A stretch of 64,000 nucleotides of DNA from an uncultured Gemmatimonadota bacterium (lineage in GTDB: Bacteria > SM23-81 > DAOVCL01), in contig CAZVGK010000003.1 in assembly GCA_964626665.1 (NCBI GenBank), positions 85,277-149,276 on the forward strand. Reading direction: 5' to 3'. Numbering within the stretch: position 1 is the first letter of the stretch; every line of letters begins with the position of its first letter. The notes under the pieces are model-generated. The model ran no database searches and was not told the origin of the DNA. It saw only the letters and a program-made list of their open reading frames with translations. The position numbers were made by a program, and so were the translations under genes. Positions 5,861 through 63,128 of the stretch are shown here, piece by piece.

Positions 5861-6847
5861 TTAAGAGTTGTATCTTCGTTTTATAAGAGCATAGCCTATT
5901 TCTCGGGATTTGTCATCCCGAGAAAATTTTCTCATCTCTTTTTTAAATTTTTTGACTCCAGGGAATCTCTTAGTAACATATCTATTCATCAGTGAACTTC
6001 TATCTTTTTTGGCCTTCAGTTTATTTCTGTTTGAAGTGTAATCATGATAAATAACGGCTTGTGGGTAATATATCAGAGAATACTTCCCGTATCTGCACCC
6101 AATCCGATAAGATAATTCTAACCCCTCATGCCCAAATAACAGAGGGTTCATTCCGTTCATCTCCATATAAACATTCTTATTAAAGGCAGAATTGCCTTCT
6201 ACATTAATAACCGAAGGAATAGGGATCGGCCCCAGGTCATAATGCTTAACCGACGGGGCAACCCCATCCTCCGTCTTAGGGAAAACTCTGCCCCTTAATC
6301 CAACAATATCATATCTACGGAAAGCTTCGATAATGGAGGAAACATAGGTGCTTGCTGCACGAGCATCATCGTCCAAGAAAGCTACGATCGCACCCTTGGC
6401 GAAATAGACACCTATATTTCTCCCCTCAGATAAGATTAGGTTCTGAGGAGATTTAACATAGAGTATATCTGAAGTCATCAAATTCCTTTCAATAGATTCA
6501 TTTTGGCCATTGTCTACAACAATAATTTCAAATCTGTCTGGAACCAGGGGAAGGAGAGAGTCCAGACAGTTCAATAGAAGCTCATTGCTCTGGTAGGTGA
6601 CGATAACTACGGATAGAATCGGTTGGTTGACTCCTCGGTTATCCCTCTTTGATAAGAGCTCATAGTTAATATGGTCTCGATATAATTTCATAAATCTTTC
6701 TGCTTCGGAGAATTTTTGGGCAGAGAATCGCTGGATTGCCAATCCAAAATTGTGTAAAGCAAATTGTTGAGGCTCTTGAGAGTTCTCTGGTAAGCTCCTG
6801 TTTTTGTTCTTGGTAAAACTTTTCAATTTTGTCCACATATCCATCAT
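5861..6847 (-). CDS. Glycosyltransferase family 2
   Basis: LSVVIVTYQSNELLLNCLDSL...EIIVVDNGQNES is the GT2 N-terminal signature including a DxD-like motif. Confidence 0.65.
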   Translation of the reverse strand: MMDMWTKLKSFTKNKNRSLPENSQEPQQFALHNFGLAIQRFSAQKFSEAERFMKLYRDHINYELLSKRDNRGVNQPILSVVIVTYQSNELLLNCLDSLLPLVPDRFEIIVVDNGQNESIERNLMTSDILYVKSPQNLILSEGRNIGVYFAKGAIVAFLDDDARAASTYVSSIIEAFRRYDIVGLRGRVFPKTEDGVAPSVKHYDLGPIPIPSVINVEGNSAFNKNVYMEMNGMNPLLFGHEGLELSYRIGCRYGKYSLIYYPQAVIYHDYTSNRNKLKAKKDRSSLMNRYVTKRFPGVKKFKKEMRKFSRDDKSREIGYALIKRRYNS

Positions 6848-10439: not shown

Positions 10440-10460
10440 CCTGGTTTATGCATTAAGAAA

Positions 10461-10573
10461 CCACGAGATTTCACAAGATATTCAAAATAAAGAGCTCACA
10501 AAAATTGAGGTTAAACCCCTCTTTCACCTGAAAGGTGAAAGCCTATATTCTTGAAGATACTTATATAATCTGT
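10461..10573. repeat. ~110-nt interspersed repeat with internal hairpin (ctttcacctgaaaggtgaaag)
   Basis: 10461-10573 and 62294-62395 are ~90% identical (cacaagatattcaaaat.aagagctcacaaaaatt.ag.ttaaac.cctct.tc..ctgaaag.tgaaag..tata.tct.gaagatacttat.taatctgt). A partial copy lies at 18441-18500. Confidence 0.65.
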
Positions 10574-10726
10574 GAAAATCCGCGTTCACCCCGTTAAATA
10601 ATTTAGAAATAGACATCATCGCATCCCCAAGCTTGCTTTTATTTAACGGACTTCACCCCGTGAAATACGAAAGTATATTTAACGGGGTTCATCTGTGGTT
10701 TATGCATATTTTGGTTCATAATTAGC

Positions 10727-18362: not shown

Positions 18363-18772
18363 CTTAATCTCTCCATCCTCCTAAATACTTTGGACGTAGA
18401 TCAATGTAGATCAAAAGGATAAATCCAGACTATACGCTGGGGAACCACGAGATTTCACGAGATTGTCACCAGATATTCAGAATAAAGATCCTCACCAAAT
18501 CAGCAATCTATGATTAAACTCACAGATCAATCCCCAACAGCTCCCTCAAATCGGAGGAGAGGTCTCAGACCTTTCGAAAGCTGTCAGCCCCGTTCCGACG
18601 GGATTCCTGGCGGAAGAGGTAACTCCTGATGGGCACACTTTTTAAGAAAACACCGAATGACACTAAAATCCCTATCCACAAGGAATAGACAGGGCCGTCA
18701 GGAGGTAACTCCTGACGGCACATTTTAGAGACAAGTTTTGTTTATCCTGTTTATCCTGTCCAAGATGAGATC

Positions 18773-25647: not shown

Positions 25648-25865
25648 CCACAGATTTCATGGAATCTCTGGAACACGAATGAGACGAATAAACGAATCTA
25701 CACGAATAGATAGATTTACCACGGAAATTCACGGAATTACACGGGAAAAAGGCAATTAAAAATTGAGAATTAAGAATGAAATTTATGCTGGCTATCCCTG
25801 ATCCCCGGAAACTGACTCTTGATCCCTGTTTTTCTGTGCATAGTCCGTGGTTATCCGTGGTGAAG
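25648..25865. repeat. cacgg-rich composite interspersed repeat (~220 nt), copy a
   Basis: The module ccacggaaattcacgg...gcaattaaaaattgagaattaagaatga..ttatgctg..cctgatccccggaaactga..gtccgtggttatccgtggtgaa recurs at 34600-34812, 39577-39798, 43013-43233 and inverted at 60580-61038. It includes ATTCGTGT-type direct repeats with ~9-10 nt periodicity. Confidence 0.7.
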
Positions 25866-32307: not shown

Positions 32308-32449
32308 TTCTACCCGGCTTTAGCCGGGGTTGAGAGGGCTTTAGCCCGTTTGGAGTGCTGTGATTCCTGTCACAGCTTCCGTCAGCAGGAGTTGACGCAC
32401 TCCATAGAGGGCCTAAAGACCCTTAACCCGCACTGAAGTGCGGTAGAAG
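32308..32449. mobile_element. REPIN/MITE-like element, copy 1
   Basis: Terminal hairpin modules ttctacc-CGGCtttaGCCGG and CGCACTgaAGTGCG-gtagaa (CTAC/GTAG-flanked). Core three-way junction ggagtgc[ctgtga..tcacag][gtcagc..gttgac]gcactcc. Other copies at 34859-34954 (truncated), 49567-49693 (inverted), 59487-59662, 62455-62580 (inverted) and a fragment at 60743-60800. Confidence 0.65.
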
Positions 32450-34584: not shown

Positions 34585-35077
34585 AATTATCTCAAATTAC
34601 CACGGAATTTCACGGAGAAAAGCAATTATGAATTGAGAATGAAGAATGAAGAATGAAGCTTATGCTGTTATTCCTGATCCCCGTAGTTTGATCCCTAACC
34701 TCTGTTTTTTCGTGGTAATCCGTGGTGATCAGTGGTAAAATATCAGCTACAGATTACACGGAAAAATGCAATTAAGAATTGAGAATTAAGAATGAGGCTT
34801 ATGCTGATCAGCGAGGTGGCAGAATCCCGATTCTGCCACCCTCCCATTGTTTTCTGATTTTCTACCCGGTTTTAGCCGGGGGTTCTTAGGGCTTAAGCCC
34901 TTTCAACGCACTTGGATAGAAAGGCCCCAACCCTGCACTAAAGTGCGGTAGAAACCTTCCACCCAGCTTTAGCTGAGCTATCAAATCCTCGATCTGACAG
35001 CAGATATCCTGATCCCTGTAAACTGTTACCTCTATTTTGACATTCATCCTGTCAATCCAGTTAATCCTGTCTAATAA

Positions 35078-39105: not shown

Positions 39106-39565
39106 CTTCGTTAAGGATCTCCCCTGCCTTTTTTATTGCCTTGATAATCTTGACATACCCGGTGCACCTACAGAGGTTGCCGGAGATGGCCTCTTTTATC
39201 TCCTCCTCTGTGGGATGTGGGTTTTCCCTGAGGAGGGCCTGAGCTGCCAGGATCATCCCCGGGGTGCAGAACCCACATTGCACAGCGCCCTCATCAAGAA
39301 ATGCCTGCTGAATCGGGTGAAGCTCATCCCAGTTGGTCATCCCTTCCAGGGTTTCGATGCTATGACCGGCAGCCTGAGGGGCAAACAGGAGACAGGATTT
39401 GGCCAATTTCCCATCCAAGATCACCGAGCAGGCCCCGCATTCACCCGTCTCACACCCTCTTTTTACGCTCTTATACCCCTCCCTTCTCAATAGGTTAAGG
39501 AGAATCTCACCGGGAGAGGTGTTTAATCTCTTCAAAACTCCATTTATGGTTAGTTCGATTTGCAT
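39098..39565 (-). CDS. [2Fe-2S]-binding small subunit (CoxS/XdhC-type), system 1
   Basis: CETGECGACSV and CGFCTPG...CRCTGY motifs. Confidence 0.9.
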   Translation of the reverse strand: MQIELTINGVLKRLNTSPGEILLNLLRREGYKSVKRGCETGECGACSVILDGKLAKSCLLFAPQAAGHSIETLEGMTNWDELHPIQQAFLDEGAVQCGFCTPGMILAAQALLRENPHPTEEEIKEAISGNLCRCTGYVKIIKAIKKAGEILNEDV

Positions 39566-39576
39566 AGGTCTATAGC

Positions 39577-39798
39577 CACGGATTGCACGGATTCACCGAA
39601 TCTTTGGAACACGAATAAACAAATCTACACGAATAAATGATCTACCACGGAAATTCACGGAAAAAAGCAATTATGAATTGAGAATTAAAAATTAAAAATA
39701 AGTATGCTGACTATTCCTGAGCCCCGGAAACTGACTCCCGATCTCTGAAAAACTGATCCCTGTTTTTCCCTGCATAGTCCGTGGTTATCCGTGGTGAA
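39577..39798. repeat. cacgg-rich composite repeat, copy c, lying between the M and S subunit genes
   Basis: Same family as 25648-25865. Its terminal segment encodes the last residues (IIHHG-stop) of the FAD subunit gene. Confidence 0.65.
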
Positions 39799-42519: not shown

Positions 42520-42996
42520 CTAATTATCCCCTATATTTAACCTCTTTGCCGCCTTCCCTATCGCTTTTATGATCTTGCTGTATCCTGTGCACCTGCAGAG
42601 ATTTCCTGATATTGCCTCCTTTATCTCCCCTTCGCTCGGATCTTGGTTTTTCATCAGCAACGCCTTTGCTGAAAGTATCATCCCAGGCGTGCAGAACCCG
42701 CATTGGACTGCTCCCTCTTCGATGAATGCCTGCTGAATTGGGTCGAGCCTGTCATCTTTGGAGAGCCCTTCAATCGTCGTTATCTCACAGCCATCAAGCT
42801 GGCAGGCAAGCACGAGACAGGAAACAACCGGTTTACCATCCATAATAACCGTGCAAGCTCCACATTCCCCCTTCCCACATCCCTCCTTCGTCCCCTTCAG
42901 TCCCAGGTCTTCTCGCAGGATCGATAGCAAGGTTCTGGTAGATTCAGTAACTATCTCCCTCTCCTGCGAATTTACTTTGAACTTTATCTTAATCAT
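42520..42996 (-). CDS. [2Fe-2S]-binding small subunit, system 2
   Basis: CGKGECGACTV and CGFCTPG...CRCTGY motifs. The likely start is the internal MIKIKFKVN. Confidence 0.9.
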   Translation of the reverse strand: MIKIKFKVNSQEREIVTESTRTLLSILREDLGLKGTKEGCGKGECGACTVIMDGKPVVSCLVLACQLDGCEITTIEGLSKDDRLDPIQQAFIEEGAVQCGFCTPGMILSAKALLMKNQDPSEGEIKEAISGNLCRCTGYSKIIKAIGKAAKRLNIGDN

Positions 42997-43012: not shown

Positions 43013-43233
43013 CCACGGAACCTCACGGAACTACACGGATGTTTTTATCAACGAATTCATTACTCATTTTTAATCTTTTTCCGTGCTACTCCGTGGTCAT
43101 CCCTGGTGAATCTACCACGGAATCTCACGGAGAAAAGCAATTATGAATTGAGAATTAAGAACGAAATTTATGCTGTTATTCCTGATTTCTGTAGACTGAT
43201 CCTTGATTTTGTTTTTCTGTGCTAGTCCGTGGT
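43013..43233. repeat. cacgg-rich composite repeat, copy d
   Basis: Same family as 25648-25865. It overlaps the 3' end of the large-subunit gene and encodes its last ~20 aa (ISPRTSTEKQNQGSVYRNQE-stop). Confidence 0.65.
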
Positions 43234-45488
43234 GAAATATTATCATTTTTGTTTAACTCAGCTATAATCTTTTCTGGGGTTGCCGGAAGGTCTCTTATCC
43301 TGATGCCGGTGGCATCAAATATCGCATTAGTAATTGCCGGGGCTACTCCAATTAGGGGCTGTTCCCCCAACCCCTTCGCCCCAAATGGCCCTTCAGGATA
43401 AGGGTCCTCAACAAAAACCGAGACTATCTCCGGTGTGTCCTTCGCGGTAGGAAGTATGTAAGTGGAGAAATTAGTATTCAAAATCTTGCCTCCCCTGGAG
43501 ATCATATCCTCAAAGAGGGCATATCCAACCGCCTGTAGTATTCCACCCTCCACCTGCCCAGTTGCGGTTTGCGGGTTAATCACCCTCCCCACATCGTGGA
43601 CGGCAATGATCTTTTTGACCGTTACCTCACCGGTAAACATATTCACCTCAACCTCCGCTATGTTTGTCCCTGTGGAGTAAACGAAATATGGTTTCCCCTG
43701 ACCGGTGGCTTTGTTCCAGGAGGTGGGCGGAGCCTTATACCACCCCTGAGAGGACATCACCATCTTTTCCTTAAAACATTCCCTGATCACATCATTTATA
43801 TCTATCCTCTTGGCTCTACACAAGGCATATCCATCTTTCAATTTAACCTTCGCCCGCGGAGACTTTAACATTTTAGCCGCCACCTCCCCGATGCTTTTCT
43901 TTATCGGCCTTGAGGCTTCTATCAGGGCATTTCCCGACATCACGGTGGCCCGAGAGGCCACCGTGGGGCCACTATCCGGCACCCTTGTTGTATCCGTAGG
44001 AATCATCGATACCCTCTCATATTCAATCCCCAATTCATTGGCCAAAATCTGAGAAAGCACGGTCTCCATACCCTGGCCCATTTCGGTGGTGCCCACCGCA
44101 AAGTTCACAGAACCATCAGAGAGAACACTCACCCACGCCCCTGCTTTGGCCAGGTGTTTCCCCCCAGCCCCTAAGCCCACCCCATAATAGTTACAGGCTA
44201 CTCCCAAACCCCTTCTTTCATATCCATTTGAACTTTTTTTCTTCCCCTTCCATCCAATGCGGGCTGCTTCTCTCAAAGTTTTTTCCAACTCTATGCTTTC
44301 CTTGATAAGGTGTCCTGTAACCGTCCTATCGCCCTTTTTCAATATGTTTCTTAACCTAAATTCAATGAGGTCAATGTGCAATTTGTGGGCAAGTTCATCC
44401 ATCTGAGATTCAATGGCGAAGGTTACCTGAGGCGTACCAAACCCCCTAAATGCCCCACAGGGAACGGTATTGGTGGTTAGCGCATAGGAATCCACCTTCA
44501 CATTAAGGCATTTGTATGGCCCTACCGCATGGACTGTTCCCCGCCAGAGGACAACTGGGCTTAAGGTGCTATAAGCGCCAGAGTTGAGGACATATTTTAC
44601 CTCAACAGCGTTGAGATAACCATCTTTAGTAACCCCGGATTTGTAATCAATTACTGCGGGATGACGCTTACTCATAGACTCTATGTCCTCTTCTCGGGAA
44701 TAGATAAGCTTGGCCGGTCTTTTGGTCCAGAAAGCAACCAAAGCGGCCTGAGAGGCCACCAGGGAAGGAACATCCTCTTTGCCTCCAAATGCCCCACCAG
44801 TGGTGGTCTGGATTACCTCTACCTTGCTGAAAGGAACTCCCAGGATATGGGAGACAGCATTTTGCACATAAAAAGGACACTGCATAGAGCCATAAATCAG
44901 CATTCGATCCTCATAGGGAACAGCAATCATTCCCTGGGGCTCTATGTAGGCATGTTCCTGGTAGGAGGTTGTATACCTGTGTGTGACAACGAGGTCGCAC
45001 TCCGCAAATCCCCTTTGAACATCTCCCCTTCTTATCCTGTGATGGGAGAATATATTATCTTTACCATAAATTTTCGGCGATTCCTTTTTCATCGCTATTA
45101 AGGGATCAAGAAGGGGCTCAAGCTCCTCATATTCAACCCTTACCTTCTGGGAGGCCTCCTCAATTGCCTCCCTATCCTCCCCCGCTATCAGGGCAATCGG
45201 TTCACCTATATACCTCACCTCTTTTTCGGCGAGCAGTGGTTGATCCATAAGAACTATGGGCACTACATTGGCTCCCGGAATAGATTCAGAGGTAAGGACA
45301 GCCACTATCCCCTTAACGGTTTTCGCCTCTGAGGGGTCGATGCTTTTGATCAAGCCATAAGGTAAAGGACTACGCACCACCTTAACCCAAAGCATATTTG
45401 GAAAGGAGAGGTCATCGATGAATATTGCCTTGCCGGTGACCTTTAACCTCACATCTTTCCTTATCTCACTTTTCCCAATAAAGCTCAT
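43176..45488 (-). CDS. Molybdopterin-dependent hydroxylase large subunit, system 2
   Basis: 770-aa class Ald_Xan_dh product. The ATG start is at MSFIGKSE; the ORF-caller TTG extension runs into the flanking inverted repeat. Confidence 0.85.
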   Translation of the reverse strand: MSFIGKSEIRKDVRLKVTGKAIFIDDLSFPNMLWVKVVRSPLPYGLIKSIDPSEAKTVKGIVAVLTSESIPGANVVPIVLMDQPLLAEKEVRYIGEPIALIAGEDREAIEEASQKVRVEYEELEPLLDPLIAMKKESPKIYGKDNIFSHHRIRRGDVQRGFAECDLVVTHRYTTSYQEHAYIEPQGMIAVPYEDRMLIYGSMQCPFYVQNAVSHILGVPFSKVEVIQTTTGGAFGGKEDVPSLVASQAALVAFWTKRPAKLIYSREEDIESMSKRHPAVIDYKSGVTKDGYLNAVEVKYVLNSGAYSTLSPVVLWRGTVHAVGPYKCLNVKVDSYALTTNTVPCGAFRGFGTPQVTFAIESQMDELAHKLHIDLIEFRLRNILKKGDRTVTGHLIKESIELEKTLREAARIGWKGKKKSSNGYERRGLGVACNYYGVGLGAGGKHLAKAGAWVSVLSDGSVNFAVGTTEMGQGMETVLSQILANELGIEYERVSMIPTDTTRVPDSGPTVASRATVMSGNALIEASRPIKKSIGEVAAKMLKSPRAKVKLKDGYALCRAKRIDINDVIRECFKEKMVMSSQGWYKAPPTSWNKATGQGKPYFVYSTGTNIAEVEVNMFTGEVTVKKIIAVHDVGRVINPQTATGQVEGGILQAVGYALFEDMISRGGKILNTNFSTYILPTAKDTPEIVSVFVEDPYPEGPFGAKGLGEQPLIGVAPAITNAIFDATGIRIRDLPATPEKIIAELNKNDNISPRTSTEKQNQGSVYRNQE

Positions 45489-45517
45489 CTTATGGGGAAG
45501 TCTCCTATTTTTAAGAA

Positions 45518-45955
45518 ACCACAAGATTACACAAGATTTTCACGAGATTATCCTTCTTTCCTCCAATTTTTCTTTGCCAAAATTGAAAAGTAATCCAATT
45601 CTATATTTTGTAGCCTTCAAATAATGCATCAACTGCGCCTCATCCACCTTTGTTAAACCAGAGGTAGCTTTAATCTCAACAATAACCTTCCCATCCACTA
45701 CCAAATCAGCTCTATACTTTTTAGGAATTAAGTGGTCTTTATAATAGATATCGATCTCAACTTGTTTCTGGAAAGGAATTCTTTGCAGCCTTAATTCATA
45801 GCATAGAGCTTCTTCATAGACATATTCCAGGAAACCGTTTCCTAATTCATTATGGACTTCCATCGCCGCACCAATGATTCTGTAAGTCAGATCTTTATAT
45901 AACCATTTGTCATCATCTGTGCTCATCTTGTGTTAATCTTGTGGTTACGAAAGCC
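45518..45955. mobile_element. Inverted-repeat-flanked mini-cassette carrying a GxxExxY (PDDEXK_3) gene
   Basis: Left IR aaccacaagattacacaagatttt (45518-45541). Right IR, as reverse complement, aaccacaagattaacacaagatga (45926-45950). About 22/24 bp identity. Confidence 0.6.
45540..45926 (-). CDS. GxxExxY family protein (PD-(D/E)xK-like, PDDEXK_3)
   Basis: IGAAMEVHNELGNGFLEYVYEEAL...ADLVVDGKVIVEIKA matches the GxxExxY family signature. Confidence 0.75.
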   Translation of the reverse strand: MSTDDDKWLYKDLTYRIIGAAMEVHNELGNGFLEYVYEEALCYELRLQRIPFQKQVEIDIYYKDHLIPKKYRADLVVDGKVIVEIKATSGLTKVDEAQLMHYLKATKYRIGLLFNFGKEKLEERRIIS

Positions 45956-46528
45956 TTTTATACACCTTTCATAATCCTCTTTTGTGTTGATATTAAGGAC
46001 AACGTTCTTATCTCCCACGGGAAGCTCGACGACACTATCTCTATTCTCCTTAATCACGAATCGAGCTCCAATGTCCTCCGGGGCATTCATCAACTCCTTT
46101 ATATATTTGGAGTTAAAGCCAACTGGATGTCCCCTTTTGCCTTTGTATTTCGGAAGAACTATCGGGGACCCCTTTTTAAGGAGGTCAACAATTGCCTGGT
46201 AAGTAGTCACTGAAACCAGAGGATGATCCACAAGGACCATCAGAAAAGCATCTATGTCTGAGGAGAGAAGGTTCAATCCAACCTTCAGGGAGAAGAGCTG
46301 TCCCCTTTCATAATTATCGTTTACTAGAGACTTTACATCTGCGGGAAGATGCGACTTAATCTCTCTTGCCTTATGGCCTAAAACGACGACGATCTCCCTT
46401 AACCCTGCCCTTTTTAAGCTTTCTATAATAGTATTTAGAAAGGTGGACCCTCCGAGGGGCAAAAGGGATTTTGGAATGCCCATTCTCTCCGATTTACCTG
46501 CTGCTAAAATTATCGCCGCGATCTTCAT
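45923..46528 (-). CDS. mocA: Molybdenum cofactor cytidylyltransferase (MocA/MobA-like NTP_transf_3)
   Basis: MKIAAIILAAGKSERMG...K.LLPLGG nucleotidyltransferase motif. The C-terminal RNHKINTR-stop is encoded by the cassette IR. Confidence 0.7.
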   Translation of the reverse strand: MKIAAIILAAGKSERMGIPKSLLPLGGSTFLNTIIESLKRAGLREIVVVLGHKAREIKSHLPADVKSLVNDNYERGQLFSLKVGLNLLSSDIDAFLMVLVDHPLVSVTTYQAIVDLLKKGSPIVLPKYKGKRGHPVGFNSKYIKELMNAPEDIGARFVIKENRDSVVELPVGDKNVVLNINTKEDYERCIKGFRNHKINTR

Positions 46529-46538
46529 TACAAAGGAT

Positions 46539-47279
46539 TTATAGCCTTATATTGATCTTTCGTCCCCATTTCCTAATTCCCTGGGTATTGGCACCAAGTG
46601 AAACTGTCTGAAGTAAATTTTCTGAGTCAACCACCTCCATACCCGAAAGCAAAGTTATCCCATGATCCTTCAATACCTCCGGAATCATAGGTGTTGTTGG
46701 TCCTATTATTGCCACGGTTCTGGCATTAGCACAGAGGGGAAGTAACCTATCAATTGTTTTATTTGTGAAGGATGTTCCGCTGATAACTATCACTTCACAT
46801 TTGGGGAGAAGCAGAGGCTCAGCCCAGTCCGGCCTATACCCCCTTAGTCCATCGATGGGGTAACGTTCAAATACATATAGCTCTTTGGATAGTTTACGCA
46901 ATTCTGGGATAAGTGGTAAAAAGGAACCTACCATACAAACTGTATCCCCACTGGTAACATCGAAAAATTGCAAGGCGTTGCCCTCAAAGAGGAGATCACT
47001 ATCCACTTCGGAGAGTGCATTCACCGTGGCCATTCCTATTGCAGCCATAAGAAAATTGTCTGAAGTTGATAACTCCAAACATTTAATAGACTTACCGTAT
47101 AACATCTGAGGTTTTAGGTGAGGAAGGGGATGGGCAAGCTCTCTGACCAATGTGGAGGCGAGGCCACATCTTCCACTATCTAATTTCACCGCCGTCAAAC
47201 ACAGTCCTACTCTTATATCGACGATTTCGTGTTCTTTTGCCCTGTCCTGCAGGGAGTCGATTATGTCACCTACAAGCAT
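46539..47279 (-). CDS. DUF364/DUF4213-like Rossmann-fold protein (putative cofactor/metal-handling accessory)
   Basis: Architecture and the GPTTPMIP motif are consistent with the DUF364 family. Lies in an operon with mocA. Confidence 0.45.
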   Translation of the reverse strand: MLVGDIIDSLQDRAKEHEIVDIRVGLCLTAVKLDSGRCGLASTLVRELAHPLPHLKPQMLYGKSIKCLELSTSDNFLMAAIGMATVNALSEVDSDLLFEGNALQFFDVTSGDTVCMVGSFLPLIPELRKLSKELYVFERYPIDGLRGYRPDWAEPLLLPKCEVIVISGTSFTNKTIDRLLPLCANARTVAIIGPTTPMIPEVLKDHGITLLSGMEVVDSENLLQTVSLGANTQGIRKWGRKINIRL

Positions 47280-47304
47280 GTTGATAGATTATCAGAAGAC
47301 CAGA

Positions 47305-48175
47305 GAATCAGAACGAGATTATCAGATTCTCTTGGCACCTTTCCGGTTACTTTGGTCCCTCTTTTCTGCGATTCTCGCTATCAAACCGTTTAACCCGCGG
47401 ATTATCTCCTCATACTCATCAATCATTGCCTGAGCCTGAAAATCAGATAAATAATGCTTATCTTCCATTTCCCTCAAATGATTTTGTGTTTCTCCAGATT
47501 CCTTTCTTGCTGTATAAAACCCTTTTATTTTATTGTTGTAATAGTAACTTGAATTACCTTCGGCAATATTATCCGCCACAGACTTTGACGAGCGTTCAAT
47601 TTGACCGCGGAGTACATATTTTTCATTCGGGGGTAGTGTCTTACAAATCTCATGAATTTCTAGCATTAGCTTATGTGCCTTTTGCCATACCCATAACTTT
47701 TCATGTCTGGGAGTTATCCCCCTCTTCTTATCATAATTTTGGGTGGCGTAGTCAAAATTGTTGCTAAGCAGATCTTTGAAATCCAGAATCTTTAAGTAAA
47801 TCAACGCCTTCTGTAGTATAGTCGTTCAAATAAGGTCTTATCACTTACCACAGGAGGTCAGAATGAATAAATCCAGGGAACGGTTGCAGTACTCAAGTTG
47901 CTATGGACTCCATAATAGACCTTATGATTCCTTCCATGATACCTGTCAGGCAACTCTAAAGTAGTATAGATTTAAGACGTTTACAGCCTCTCTTAAAAGG
48001 AACAGACACAAGATCGATAAAAACCACTTTAGTTAGCTAAGGCGGACACCCAAAATATCAACTGGATCGGATTCAGTCAGAAGCCTCATTAGCAACAATT
48101 TTGACTACGCCACCAATTTTGTGCCATAATTTTTCTGTTATTCTGATGCTCTCGTTCTGCTATTCTGTAATCTGA
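47305..48175. mobile_element. Inverted-repeat-flanked cassette carrying a four-helix-bundle (23S rRNA IVS-type) gene
   Basis: Left IR gaatcagaacgagattatcagattc (47305-47330). Right IR, as reverse complement, gaatatcagattacagaatagcagaacgagagcatcagaa (48138-48177). Confidence 0.5.
47322..47804 (-). CDS. Four-helix-bundle protein (TIGR02436, 23S rRNA intervening-sequence protein family)
   Basis: WQKAHKLMLEIHEICKTLPPNEKYVLRGQIERSSKSVADNIAEG is the family signature. Confidence 0.75.
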   Translation of the reverse strand: MIYLKILDFKDLLSNNFDYATQNYDKKRGITPRHEKLWVWQKAHKLMLEIHEICKTLPPNEKYVLRGQIERSSKSVADNIAEGNSSYYYNNKIKGFYTARKESGETQNHLREMEDKHYLSDFQAQAMIDEYEEIIRGLNGLIARIAEKRDQSNRKGAKRI

Positions 48176-48647
48176 TATTCTTCTCTATGAGCTCTGGGAT
48201 AAACTCCCTGTTATCCTCAGTAACTTCCATAATAACCACTTCGTGCAGCGATCTAATCCTATCCAAGAATGGATTAGACTCCTTCTTCAGCACTCCCAAC
48301 ACGCTGCGGTCACTGTTGATTGCAGAGAAAACCGCCTTTTGAAATTCCTTACAGTCAAGTTCGAACCTCCCCAGCTCATCCATTATAATGATGTCCCTCT
48401 TAACAAGCGCCATCTCTATAGCAGATTTCCCCAACCCTTCAAAGCCCTCCTTGATAATTTCCCAGTTTAACCCATTTCTTCTCGCTACAACTTCAGTTCT
48501 ATCGGATATTAAATCTCGGAGCAAAACCAAATTAGACTCTATTTTAGTCTGAAACCCTCCATAGGAGAGGTCAATGCTCTGCAGGAATTCCCTGATGGCT
48601 GTGCTCTTCCCTATACCAATCTTACCAGTGAGGAAAATATTCATCCC
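48138..48647 (-). CDS. THEP1/NTPase_1-like P-loop nucleoside triphosphatase
   Basis: MNIFLTGKIGIGKST Walker A and IIIMDELGRFEL Walker B. The last 9 aa (QNSRTRASE) are encoded by the cassette right IR. Confidence 0.6.
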   Translation of the reverse strand, partial: GMNIFLTGKIGIGKSTAIREFLQSIDLSYGGFQTKIESNLVLLRDLISDRTEVVARRNGLNWEIIKEGFEGLGKSAIEMALVKRDIIIMDELGRFELDCKEFQKAVFSAINSDRSVLGVLKKESNPFLDRIRSLHEVVIMEVTEDNREFIPELIEKNIRLQNSRTRASE

Positions 48648-48660
48648 CCAAACACCACTA

Positions 48661-49341
48661 TTAGGACCCAACAGTGATGGCAAAGGCTCCAATCCCCCAA
48701 CAAACTGCTGAAATGGTAATGCAGGTAGCATAACCAAAAGTTGGTTTTGTCGTCAGCAGATGAACCATAGCTGGCCGGAGTTTTATCCCCACCAAATATC
48801 CAACAGGTAAGAAAATGGCTGAGAAAACCATCCAAACAAGGCCCTCTCGCACCATAAACCCCATTGGGCTAAACGAGAGCAGATAAGTGCAGGGCGCCAC
48901 TCTCATCCCCACGAAGTAAAAACTTGCTGCACCAATGAGAGCGGCTAGGGCCCCCACGCCCATTCTCGTATAGACACCTCTATCCATTCTCTCCATTAGA
49001 CCAAGGGCTACCAGGCTGAGGGCAAATGACTCTAACCCCACAGCAATAGATGAGTTTGCTTTGCAGACTATGGAAATGTGCAGAATGGGAATAGAAAGCA
49101 TCTTAAACAACCCAGCAATTAAACCTACCCCCAACAGCATAGTTGGCCTTTTGTAGATAGCCAGAGTTATGCCCATACTGAGCATTCCCATACCCACGAG
49201 CAAACCAGCATGATAGGGAAAATCGATAGCCCGCAGGCCAGATCCAAGAACAACCTCAAAGAATCCCCAAATAGAACCAAAGAGCAAAATCCCCATAACA
49301 ACAGGGAATCCACCTTGCCATTTGCTAACTTCTGTGCTCAT
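48661..49341 (-). CDS. Polytopic membrane protein of unknown function (about 7 TM)
   Basis: Strongly hydrophobic helices. The start is placed at MSTEVSKW, which has the perfect RBS gggaggagag upstream. Confidence 0.55.
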   Translation of the reverse strand: MSTEVSKWQGGFPVVMGILLFGSIWGFFEVVLGSGLRAIDFPYHAGLLVGMGMLSMGITLAIYKRPTMLLGVGLIAGLFKMLSIPILHISIVCKANSSIAVGLESFALSLVALGLMERMDRGVYTRMGVGALAALIGAASFYFVGMRVAPCTYLLSFSPMGFMVREGLVWMVFSAIFLPVGYLVGIKLRPAMVHLLTTKPTFGYATCITISAVCWGIGAFAITVGS

Positions 49342-50237
49342 CTCTCCTCCCTCTAAATTTCCGATTTTATCCTTTTTGAGCAAGACATATGAGAAGTTTT
49401 CCCTCCCCACCCCATCTCTCGACTGGCCTATAATAAGAAATGTTCATTAACCTGTCAAGCTTTCTTGGATGAATAGTTACTACTGAGACCACTAATCAGA
49501 TTACCCATCATTGCGAGGCTTGCACTGAGCTGCAGCGAGGCGGCAAGCCAAAGCAATCTCCAGCAACTACCGCACTTTAGTGGGGGGGGATATTATGGAG
49601 TGCGTCAACTTCCGTTGACGCATGCTGTGACAGGGCCACAGCACTCCAAAGGGGCTAAAGCCCTCTTAACCCCCGGCTAAAGCCGGGTAGAAGTTGTGGG
49701 AGGCATCTCCCAATGCTGATGCAAGCCAAGGCCAGGAGACCCCTCCCACCCAACCAATGACCCTCCTCGCAATGACCAATGAAATACCAATATGCAGACT
49801 ACAATGTGACCCGAGTAATAATTATCCTTCATTTTTCTGGGATCCCGCTTCTTAAACAATCCCTTCGCTCAGCTTCGGCATTAAACGCTTGACTTTAACC
49901 AAAGATGGGGCTAACTTTCAGTTAGGGGATTACTTGAATTTCCAGATGAACCAAGTATAGGGGAAGAGTAAATTGCTTCAGGAAAAGAACCTTTCTCCCC
50001 TAAGCCATAAACCACAGAGGTCAGAGATCAGTTTACGGGAATCAGGGATCAGCCGTCAGCGGTCAGCAATTCGTCAGTTATCGGTTATCAGTTGTTAGGG
50101 GTTCCCCCCTGATCCCTGCTTCTTCATTCCTGTAAACTGACCCCTGGCTGCTGCAAACTGACCTCTTTGCCTAAAGTGACGCTCACCTCTTTTTAAACCT
50201 TTTGCCCAATATGGTTTCCTAATCTTAAGGAGGGAAG

Positions 50238-59486: not shown

Positions 59487-59662
59487 TCTACCCGGCTTCA
59501 GCTAAGGGTTCTCATTTTTTTACCGGGTTTTAGTCGAGGGTCATTGGGGCTTTAGCCCATGTGGAGTGCTGTGACTCCTGTCACAGCATGCGTCAACAGG
59601 AGTTGACGCACTCCATATACTGGCCTGAAGGCCCTCAACCCTACTACTAAAGTGCGGTAGAA
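59487..59662. mobile_element. REPIN/MITE-like element, most complete copy
   Basis: ttctacccggcttcagc....ggagtgctgtgactcctgtcacagcatgcgtcaacaggagttgacgcactcc....ctactaaagtgcggtagaa. Same family as 32308-32449. Confidence 0.65.
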
Positions 59663-60550: not shown

Positions 60551-61066
60551 GTAACATAGAGGCACCCTTAGCAGTAACAATTCACCACGGAATTACCTGG
60601 CGCGGCAAAGCCGCAACCAAACAAGGGCCACAGATTACACGGATTTCACTGACAGAAAAAACTACTATCGGAGGTCGTCGCTGATCACCTACTGCGGGTA
60701 GGGGCTTGATTTATCAAGCCCGTTCGGGTCGCATAAATGCGACCCCTACACTTCTACCCGGCTTTAGCCCTATCTTTTCAACCTACGGGCCTGAAGGCCC
60801 AGGGATAACCAGCATAAACTTCATTTTTAATTCTCAATTCTTGCAAAGGGAGGAGATATTCGGAAAGATTTTTCTCTAATCTGTGGAAATCTTTGCATAT
60901 CTGCGGTTTATATGTGTATTGTAATTCTTATCTCTTTTCCCGTGTAATTCCGTGAATTTCCGTGGTAAATTATCCATTCGTGTAGATTCGTCTATTCGTG
61001 TCATTCGTGTTCTATCAGTGAAATCTGTGGAATTCCGTGGTAAACCAGAAGCCTCGCTAAGCTGAT

Positions 61067-62265: not shown

Positions 62266-63128
62266 ATCCCAAATTATGCGATAGGGTGATCGTCACAAGA
62301 TATTCAAAATGAAGAGCTCACAAAAATTAAGTTTAAACTCCTCTATCGTCTGAAAGATGAAAGTTTATACTCTGGAAGATACTTATTTAATCTGTACTAC
62401 GATCTTGCAAGAACTTGTTTTTTGGACAAAGTTAAAGCCCATTGAGCACAAAATTTCTACCGCACTTTAGTACAGTTTGCTATGGAGTGCGTCAACTCCT
62501 GTTGACGTATGCTGTGACACGGTCACAGCACTCCAAACGGGTTAAACCCCTATCAACCCTCAGCTAAAGCCGGGTAGAAGAAGTCCTGAACGTTGAGTAG
62601 TTTTTTTGGTCTGTGTAATCCGTGTAATCTGTGGCTCTTGTCTGGTTGCGGCTTTGCCGCGCTATGAAAATCTACACTACAATTTTGCAAGATCTTGTTT
62701 TTTTAACAAAGTTTTCCTTAGCAACCGCAAAGCTACTAAGATCGCAGAGGAGATAAAAAGCAAAAGAGAGATGAAATCTACCGAGCCGTCAGAACCCCAA
62801 TTCTGAGGGTAATCTCTATTTTCTTTCGGGGTTACTCCGTGTTTATCCGTGGTGAATCTTTTTCTTTAAACTTTGCGTCCTTTGCGACTTTGCGGTGAAT
62901 TATTTGGTTGCGGCTTCGCCGCACTGGGTTCATCTGTGGTTATAGCATATTTTGGGTTTATATATCGTTCTCCCCTGGCGAGGAGAAACGAGGACAAAGA
63001 AAATGGAAAGGAGGTGATGCAACAAACAGAATCGCCAGAACCTTTATCCCAAAAGGGGGGTGATAACATATGTTGGTGGACTGTTGCTCGTGAACTATTC
63101 ATAAATTTCAATTTGAAGGAGAAAGAAA

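Follow-up and report, generated by a model that had tools for sequence, protein, structure and literature searches.

A Candidate Mobile Mini-Cassette Carrying a Predicted GxxExxY Nuclease Gene between Inverted Arrays of Phased Units in a Molybdenum-Hydroxylase Operon

Introduction

Why should a small predicted nuclease gene, closely enclosed by inverted repeats, sit between two metabolic genes of a bacterial operon? The gene in question encodes a 128-aa GxxExxY/PDDEXK_3 protein and lies at 45540-45926, on the minus strand, of a 64,000-nucleotide stretch of contig CAZVGK010000003.1 from an uncultured Gemmatimonadota bacterium (hereafter the window), between mocA and the gene for the large subunit of a molybdenum (Mo) hydroxylase (xdh). 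A first-pass annotation made from the letters alone proposed that the gene is carried on a free-standing mobile cassette and linked it to the intervening sequences (IVSs) of rRNA genes. To our knowledge, no account of where rRNA IVSs and their conserved open reading frames (ORFs) come from, or of what they do, has gained acceptance since about 1990, and we know of no role for the GxxExxY and four-helix-bundle proteins, which form large, widespread families. We compared the locus with related loci, here denoted by L and a number. The account that we favor, and hold to be reasonably likely, is that of a selfish, horizontally spreading mini-cassette of ~430 bp with an IVS-type design, in which a nuclease ORF lies between inverted arrays of phased units.

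Results

The inverted arms of the cassette enclose only the GxxExxY ORF. The core of the 5' arm is AACCACAAGATTAACACAAGAT (the reverse complement of 45925-45946), and that of the 3' arm, at 45517-45537, is AACCACAAGATTA-CACAAGAT. The inverted repeat noticed in the first-pass annotation is therefore present, but it is not the single near-perfect 24-bp sequence with one c/a substitution that had been described: each arm consists of three tandem 10-11-nt units (CCAC-RAG-AT), and the two arms differ by a 1-nt indel. On the coding strand, the 5' arm (45915-45946, minus strand) reads AA-CCACAAGAT-TAA-CACAAGAT-GAG-CACAGAT, with its three units at 11-nt spacing. The GxxExxY ATG (45924-45926) falls within unit 2, and the third unit, CACAGAT (45915-45921), lies within codons 3-5. 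The 3' arm (45517-45548, minus strand) reads ATCTCGTG-AAA-ATCTTGTG-TA-ATCTTGTGGTT on the coding strand, with units ATCTCGTG, ATCTTGTG and ATCTTGTGG; the first of these on the coding strand, which lies outside the core (CACGAGAT, 45541-45548), includes the GxxExxY stop codon, TGA (45540-45542). A conserved stretch outside the 3' arm (45506-45516, minus strand; TCTTAAAAATA on the coding strand) accompanies the cassette into other gene contexts in the alignment, and sequence of this type also adjoins a gene-less arm, at 10441-10452. Allowing ≤3 mismatches, we found the 22-mer arm repeat nowhere else in the window, nor in any of 100 shuffles. The shorter motif CACRAGATT occurs seven times in the window against 0.9 expected, a number reached in 0/100 shuffles, and the recurrence of the arm motif reported earlier is borne out at 10462-10479, 18446-18476 and 62294-62301.

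The cassette behaves as a unit that is distinct from its surroundings. The block from (AATTT)AACCAC to GTGGTT(TCTTAAAA) was found in at least five gene contexts among WOR-3/Stahlbacteria relatives, and the window itself derives from a relative of this candidate division. Cassettes with the same arms are present in the orthologous mocA-xdh operons of L009, L008 and L220. Other contexts are provided by L014 and L016 (two copies in one Stahlbacteria metagenome-assembled genome), L223b (after PqqD) and L224 (after NDK). The L016 copy is cut by a contig end and is closely related to the L014 copy, and the NDK-context copy is 87-90% identical at the nucleotide level to the mocA|xdh copies. A 5' arm of the same type also occurs in L014, L220-L224 and the loci of ANME-1 archaea. 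The 3' arm has two units in L009; in the window, as in L220 and L014, it has three. The cassette is missing from two orthologous operons that are more distant. In L011/L012, the mocA-xdh spacer spans 156 nt and holds a CACGGATT array instead; in L013, mocA and xdh overlap.

The divergence of the cassette points in the same direction. When the window is compared with L009/L220, the cassette gene has a synonymous divergence (dS) of 0.33-0.37, as against 0.93-1.06 in mocA, 0.85-0.89 in xdh and 0.90 in DUF364, which places the cassette ~3 times below its neighbors. In a sliding identity profile, a plateau of 0.86-0.95 coincides with the cassette, arms included, and steps sharply at the arms to a flank identity of 0.65-0.93 (mean ~0.76 in mocA and ~0.81 in xdh). 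The boundaries are sharp, and no homing-style co-conversion gradient was seen in the flanks. The arms are the ends of an inherited unit, and the history of the cassette is younger than that of the flanking genes. The occurrence in at least five contexts, the two operons without the cassette and this sharp island of low dS uphold the proposal of a free-standing mobile cassette between inverted repeats, and comparison of the sequences shows that the gene moves along with its arms from locus to locus and across phyla and domains.

Two side observations concern these relatives. In L012, a WOR-3 JGI_Cruoil relative, a truncated PDDEXK_3 ORF of 67 aa lies at 6086-6289, between the large subunit and Fer2. 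Among independent short-read contigs, L005 and L006 have TAACCAC, which marks the outer edge of the 5' arm, as their very first letters, and L008 and L224 end in the 3' arm. Contig ends at these positions suggest branching of the assembly graph at a multi-copy cassette, such that the cassette arms break short-read assemblies.

The transfer between domains is indicated by archaeal copies. Proteins 66-72% identical to that of the window are encoded in ANME-1 (Methanophagales: L213, L214, L215, L216), where the identity is 66-71%, and in KSB1 bacteria (L217-L219). The ANME-1 cassettes have the same design, with arms AACCACGAGATTACACAAGATTACACAGAAG ... ATCTTGTGAGAATCTGTGTAATCTGGTGGTT and the closely similar units CACGAGAT, CACAAGAT and CACAGAAG. 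One identical ANME-1 protein is found behind two different upstream genes, and the sequence shared by the two copies begins at CCAC. Close homologues with the same arm design in ANME-1 and KSB1 imply transfer of the whole cassette between domains. As a side observation, the MoaE gene upstream of the L216 cassette reads through the arm and stops at the ATGA of the cassette.

To place these cassettes among GxxExxY genes at large, 80 loci (≤3 kb on each side) were taken from species-representative genomes of Bacteroidota, Treponema, Planctomycetota, Acidobacteriota, Verrucomicrobiota, Chloroflexi, Deltaproteobacteria and others. An array was defined as tandem C[AG]C-N2-3-AT units with a spacing of 8-12 nt, no more than 150 nt from the gene, and a gene was scored as bracketed when a forward array lay upstream and a reverse array downstream; other genes in the same loci served as controls. 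An array was found near 61/75 GxxExxY genes and 11/102 controls (Fisher p 2e-22), and 29/75 GxxExxY genes were bracketed, as compared to 0/102 controls (Fisher p 3e-13). Units most often stand 10 nt (74 cases) or 9 nt (47) apart, the commonest arm has three units, and the outermost unit is preceded by C, hence CCAC...GTGG. The commonest cores are CACGAAT, CACAGAT, CACAAAT, CACTAAT, CGCAGAT and CACAAGAT. The two arms agree within a locus and differ between loci, and two paralogues on one contig carry different unit families (CGCAAAA and CACRAGAT). Complete gene-less hairpins adjoin some GxxExxY genes (L019, L223b). Cultured hosts of this architecture include Bacteroides finegoldii, with the order radA | CACCACAGAGGACGCAGAGGACACGGAGG - GxxExxY (WP_032839887) - CTCTGTGACCTCTGTGTCCTCTGTGGTG | FAD protein, and Marinifilum. 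Protein and alignment searches found no relatives on viral contigs; eight plasmid records matched, none of them mobilisable. We found no account, in the literature searched, of arrays that flank GxxExxY or PDDEXK_3 genes, and this widespread family of phased-array cassettes is apparently undescribed.

The encoded protein matches Pfam PDDEXK_3 (PF13366) over profile positions 1-116 of 117 (E 1.1e-42; 145.5 bits versus a cut-off of 22) and TIGR04256 GxxExxY (E 3.7e-45; 153 bits versus a cut-off of 35). Its signature, G31xxE34xxY37, D74, E84-I-K86 and Q98xxxY102, is intact and is invariant or ≥90% conserved in 32 homologues. As judged from these residues, the PD-(D/E)XK catalytic motif is intact, and the protein is a predicted RecB/Cas4-like nuclease. 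An AlphaFold 2 (AF2) model of moderate confidence (pLDDT 68) has an alpha-alpha-beta-beta-beta-alpha-beta core. The best fold match in the PDB is Cas4 SSO0001 (probability 0.97, E 0.017), with nuclease domains of RecB type ranking next; no solved structure homologous by sequence was found. PADLOC defence models returned just weak Cas4-like matches (E 0.002-0.016), and PHROGS returned nothing useful for the nuclease. Compared between the window and L009/L220, the cassette gene has a dN/dS of ~0.15, which shows purifying selection on the protein.

The arms could act as RNA or as DNA. Both the minimum-free-energy and the centroid RNA folds pair 45925-45946 with 45517-45537, as 13 + 8 + ~7 bp, and the genes next to GxxExxY genes are mostly co-oriented with them (57/65 upstream, 88%; 51/62 downstream, 82%). 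No promoter-like or terminator-like site was found within the window cassette, which is therefore probably co-transcribed with the Mo-hydroxylase operon in which it lies. Between the two arms, the unit cores are 90% identical and equal-length linkers 56%. The phasing of 9-10 bp, together with a CAC..AT core that is conserved across phyla, suggests recognition on one face of the DNA helix. We take the arms to be the unit's functional ends, which may work either as a stem for RNase III or as phased sites for a binding protein.

The 5' arm also encodes the end of mocA. The C-terminal tail at 45923-45946 (minus strand), N-H-K-I-N-T-R-stop, lies entirely within the arm, and the mocA TGA overlaps the cassette ATG as ATGA. 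The first-pass annotation had described this overlap and the stop within the arm correctly, whereas the number of arm-encoded codons is seven rather than eight. In L009, where mocA is 75% identical, the same cassette with the same arms occupies the same place, and mocA ends in its own TGA TAA, 10 nt before the arm. The window is without 6 nt at the mocA end relative to L009, and as a consequence of this loss mocA reads through to the ATGA. A different deletion in L008 and L220 joins mocA to the arm in another reading frame. These comparisons indicate that the reading of mocA into the arm is derived, through a secondary stop-loss. The proposal of an inserted cassette holds up here as well: the repeat occurs at other loci too, and the C-terminus seen in the window is not shared by mocA orthologues (63-79% identity), whose tails are unrelated.

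Elements with the same arm and no gene occur elsewhere in the window, all on the plus strand. The element at 10452-10597 begins with the arm AAACCACGAGATTTCACAAGAT, continues with a ~100-nt core and has a degenerate opposite arm, ATCTGTGAAAATCCGCG, last. That at 62290-62400 is 87% identical to the core at 10471-10573 and keeps one CACAAGAT unit; both belong to repeat family D9. The element at 18443-18560 begins with the same arm, AACCACGAGATTTCACGAGATTGTCACCAGAT, in three units. These gene-less elements look like non-autonomous derivatives or, if the arms are taken as a target for the gene, like such targets.

Other intergenic tandem-unit elements lie at 25714-25864, 34595-34739, 39640-39798, 43110-43202, 60584-61044 and 62596-62940, with units CACGGAA, ACAGGAT, CACGAAT, GAGAAT and CTGATCC. 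They often form inverted pairs around gene-free loops of ~90 nt and occupy most spacers of two Mo-hydroxylase operons; the element at 43110-43202 overlaps the large-subunit gene at its 3' end. A separate family of ~100-nt repeats (TATGGAGTGCGTCAAC...GCTAAAGCC...), with internal hairpins, is present in both orientations at 49594-49693, 62481-62580, 32336-32406 and 59547-59617, with 88-97% identity. The two paralogous Mo-hydroxylase gene sets stand in tandem, and their Fer2 small-subunit genes (39126-39346 and 42551-42771) are 73% identical over 221 nt.

The gene order around the cassette, all on the minus strand, is NTPase_1 (48138-48737), a four-helix-bundle "23S_rRNA_IVP" gene (47322-47804), DUF364 (46539-47279), a mocA-type NTP_transf_3 gene (45923-46528), the PDDEXK_3/GxxExxY gene, xdh (43176-45488), the Fer2 subunit gene and XdhC. 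The second of these genes connects the locus to rRNA IVSs. Five four-helix-bundle genes were examined, and all are flanked by tandem-unit arrays of their own sequence, with an inverted arrangement in four cases (the window, L009, L088 and L046) and a direct one in L043. The window copy (47283-48175) has the same design as the GxxExxY cassette, with units CAGAAT/ATCAGAA in arrays at 48133-48175 and 47283-47321. Its 5' array takes in the final 12 codons of the NTPase gene upstream. The L009 NTPase stops earlier (IRLTE*), and a 1-nt difference lengthens the tail in the window, a parallel to mocA; arms thus repeatedly rewrite the C-termini of upstream genes, here those of mocA and the NTPase. The four-helix-bundle gene of the window is itself broken at codon 4 by a 373-bp insertion (47742-48114) resembling a miniature inverted-repeat transposable element (MITE), with perfect 26-bp terminal inverted repeats (TIRs), GGTGGCGTAGTCAAAATTGTTGCTAA, and a 7-bp target-site duplication (TSD), AATTTTG (47735-47741 and 48115-48121). 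The gene is uninterrupted in L009, and the window holds no second copy of the insertion.

The Coxiella burnetii 23S IVS, as described in the literature, spans 428 nt and carries an S23p four-helix-bundle ORF directly preceded by 2-3 tandem GACAGAT heptamers, whose number varies by strain; RNase III cuts at the first repeat. The cassette shares with the rRNA IVSs of C. burnetii and Leptospira a length of ~430 nt, one small ORF with a poor Shine-Dalgarno sequence, complementary ends, 2-4 short tandem units directly before the ORF that vary in number between strains, and a sporadic distribution that suggests horizontal transfer. It differs in lying in a protein-coding operon rather than in rRNA helix 9, 25 or 45, in having a PD-(D/E)XK nuclease as its ORF, and in an arm mismatch pattern that does not look RNA-selected. 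Flanked by mocA and xdh in a window with no rRNA gene, it is not located where an IVS is by definition found. No rRNA gene was present in any of the 80 related GxxExxY loci, one tRNA being the sole Rfam match, and in the window Rfam gave nothing at gathering score and just noise at E ≤10 around the cassette. The protein family documented in IVSs in the literature examined is four-helix-bundle 23S_rRNA_IVP. The earlier link to rRNA IVSs therefore stands for the architecture, as exemplified by the Coxiella tandem heptamers; of GxxExxY as a passenger of rRNA IVSs, no case was found among the 80 loci or in the literature examined. By these comparisons, the window cassette has the anatomy of a genuine IVS, yet it is located in an operon.

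Discussion

Our comparisons allow us to propose how such a cassette might spread and persist, and we infer a mobility mechanism of IVS type. New copies would arise by recombination or insertion at the DNA level, at the arms. The encoded nuclease would most likely recognize the phased CAC..AT units as a multimer and make the initiating cut, a role analogous to that of a homing endonuclease or to the relationship between REP-associated tyrosine transposases (RAYTs) and REPINs, the hairpin doublets of repetitive extragenic palindromic (REP) sequences. In the operon transcript, the arms could pair as an interrupted stem of ~28 bp, and RNase III could excise the cassette as it does rRNA IVSs, so that the element would be tolerated between essential genes. 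Gene-less elements with the same arm would be its non-autonomous derivatives.

Several observations weigh against this proposal. Among 39 arm pairs, the arm mismatches comprise 42 G.U, 62 A.C and 239 transversions, mostly in linkers, with no excess of G.U; a third of the linker pairs are unequal in length, and the unit numbers of the two arms are uncorrelated. We therefore do not claim a helix selected as RNA. No TSD was found at the junctions of the window, L009, L014, L016, L214, L216 or L224, where A/T-rich flanks limit the resolution, and no closely related filled/empty pair was found among the relatives examined. The low dS may partly come from constraint on synonymous sites, and L216, one of the ANME-1 loci, is a short contig that could be chimeric. 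A metagenome scan for the arm, with AATCTYGTGGTTTCTT as the query, yielded 101 single chance hits and 19 real arrays among the 120 matches listed, almost none of them adjoining a GxxExxY ORF. As for the nuclease, no fold match to the AF2 model reaches E 0.001, and a distinct DNA-binding domain is absent from the 128-aa protein. Nor can a nuclease be a universal requirement, since four-helix-bundle cassettes of the same design lack one.

Some of these observations would be expected if the arrays were pre-existing host intergenic repeats, like the tandem heptamers of cyanobacteria or Beggiatoa, in which GxxExxY genes land or survive, with the arms as target. The spacers of the window are rich in other gene-free tandem arrays and hairpin pairs, most metagenome copies of the arm are solo among the matches listed, the empty mocA-xdh spacer of L011 holds the CACGGATT array, complete gene-less hairpins stand beside some GxxExxY genes, and the literature records heptamer arrays in intergenic regions with no known function. 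Host repeats would not be expected, however, to be conserved with the gene as one block in five contexts, or to lie within the low-divergence block, which takes in the arms and ends at them. The unit type also tracks the gene and not the host: WOR-3 and ANME-1 share closely similar arms of the CACGAGAT/CACAAGAT type, and two paralogues on one contig have different arms. We regard an origin of the arms as host repeats as unlikely, though deserving of serious attention. Slightly less plausible to us is that the arms are operator or iteron arrays, to which either the GxxExxY protein itself or a host factor binds and so controls the cassette gene or the operon downstream, with mobility incidental. 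Binding sites of this kind would account for the 9-10 bp spacing of about one helical turn, for cores that are conserved at 90% versus 56% in linkers without G.U bias, for a start codon in the 5' arm and a stop codon in the 3' arm, and for the same-type arms found just upstream of other genes or promoter-like sequences. Regulation leaves unexplained the multi-context distribution, the low dS and the cross-domain transfer; several unit families in one genome and the same design around unrelated four-helix-bundle proteins also speak against it.

An integron-type cassette, or a transposon or MITE with TIRs that is moved by a trans-acting recombinase or transposase whose gene lies elsewhere, would likewise present a short ORF between imperfect inverted repeats and leave gene-less derivatives, and some loci consist of an ORF followed by a complete hairpin, which is attC-like. 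We consider such an element very unlikely. There is no TSD, the genuine MITE of the window with its 7-bp TSD and 26-bp TIRs looks quite different, and the cassettes are single within operons rather than arrayed. No integrase or transposase domain was found among the genes examined around the cassettes, the whole window not having been screened for intI. That the gene is an ordinary resident whose flanking repeat arose by chance or local slippage is hardly credible: slippage can generate low-complexity tandem units, but the 22-mer is unexpected by chance and conserved in relatives, and the design recurs in 29-61 of 75 loci versus 0-11 of 102 controls.

The mobile-cassette reading also gains definition from a comparison with known systems. 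RAYTs are HUH/Y1 transposases and are usually single-copy per REP family. Like REP/REPIN-RAYT systems, the cassette has a small nuclease-type gene between inverted short repeats, with the same repeat dispersed solo and as hairpin doublets. REPs, however, are single palindromes, whereas the arms here consist of phased tandem units, and GxxExxY genes, unlike RAYTs, come as families of paralogues, each having arms of its own. Membership in the REPIN/RAYT class was considered and rejected because only PDDEXK_3 was detected in the protein, and not the HUH Y1 (IS200/IS605-like) transposase that defines the class. Homing endonuclease genes, including that of the PD-(D/E)XK enzyme I-Ssp6803I, are similar in being small co-oriented nuclease ORFs between conserved genes, with a variable presence among relatives and a history younger than that of their flanks. 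They are not bracketed by inverted arrays, and the cassette differs further in occupying unrelated sites with no co-conversion gradient. The intergenic heptamer arrays described in the literature, namely the short tandemly repeated repetitive (STRR) sequences of cyanobacteria and the TAACTGA arrays of Beggiatoaceae, Cyanobacteria and Bacteroidetes, are direct repeats for which no link to a gene family has been described. They resemble the arms in having 2-6 tandem units of 7-10 nt that often end before a start codon or overlap an upstream ORF at its end; the arrays here, in contrast, are inverted pairs that enclose GxxExxY or four-helix-bundle genes. MITEs and insertion sequences share TIRs, gene-less derivatives and, possibly, multiple copies with the cassette, which differs from them in having arms built of repeated units, no TSD and no transposase; the MITE-like insertion at 47742-48114 provides the contrast within the window itself.

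Conclusions

A wider generalization can be offered tentatively, as something possible rather than probable. The GxxExxY and four-helix-bundle cassettes may constitute one undescribed, prokaryote-wide class of mobile elements, each a tiny ORF between inverted arrays phased with the helix, in which the PD-(D/E)XK protein, where present, would be an array-specific nuclease or recombination factor, in parallel to RAYT and REPIN, and which might be the source both of ORF-bearing IVSs and of intergenic heptamer/decamer arrays and hairpins. IVS ORFs, the GxxExxY and four-helix-bundle families, and intergenic heptamer arrays appear here as parts of one architecture, which resides in ordinary operons and acts there as a discrete unit that moves horizontally. 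The vague label of "selfish element" thereby becomes testable: the nuclease may act on its own units, RNase III may excise the cassette from mRNA, and solo arrays may derive from cassettes.

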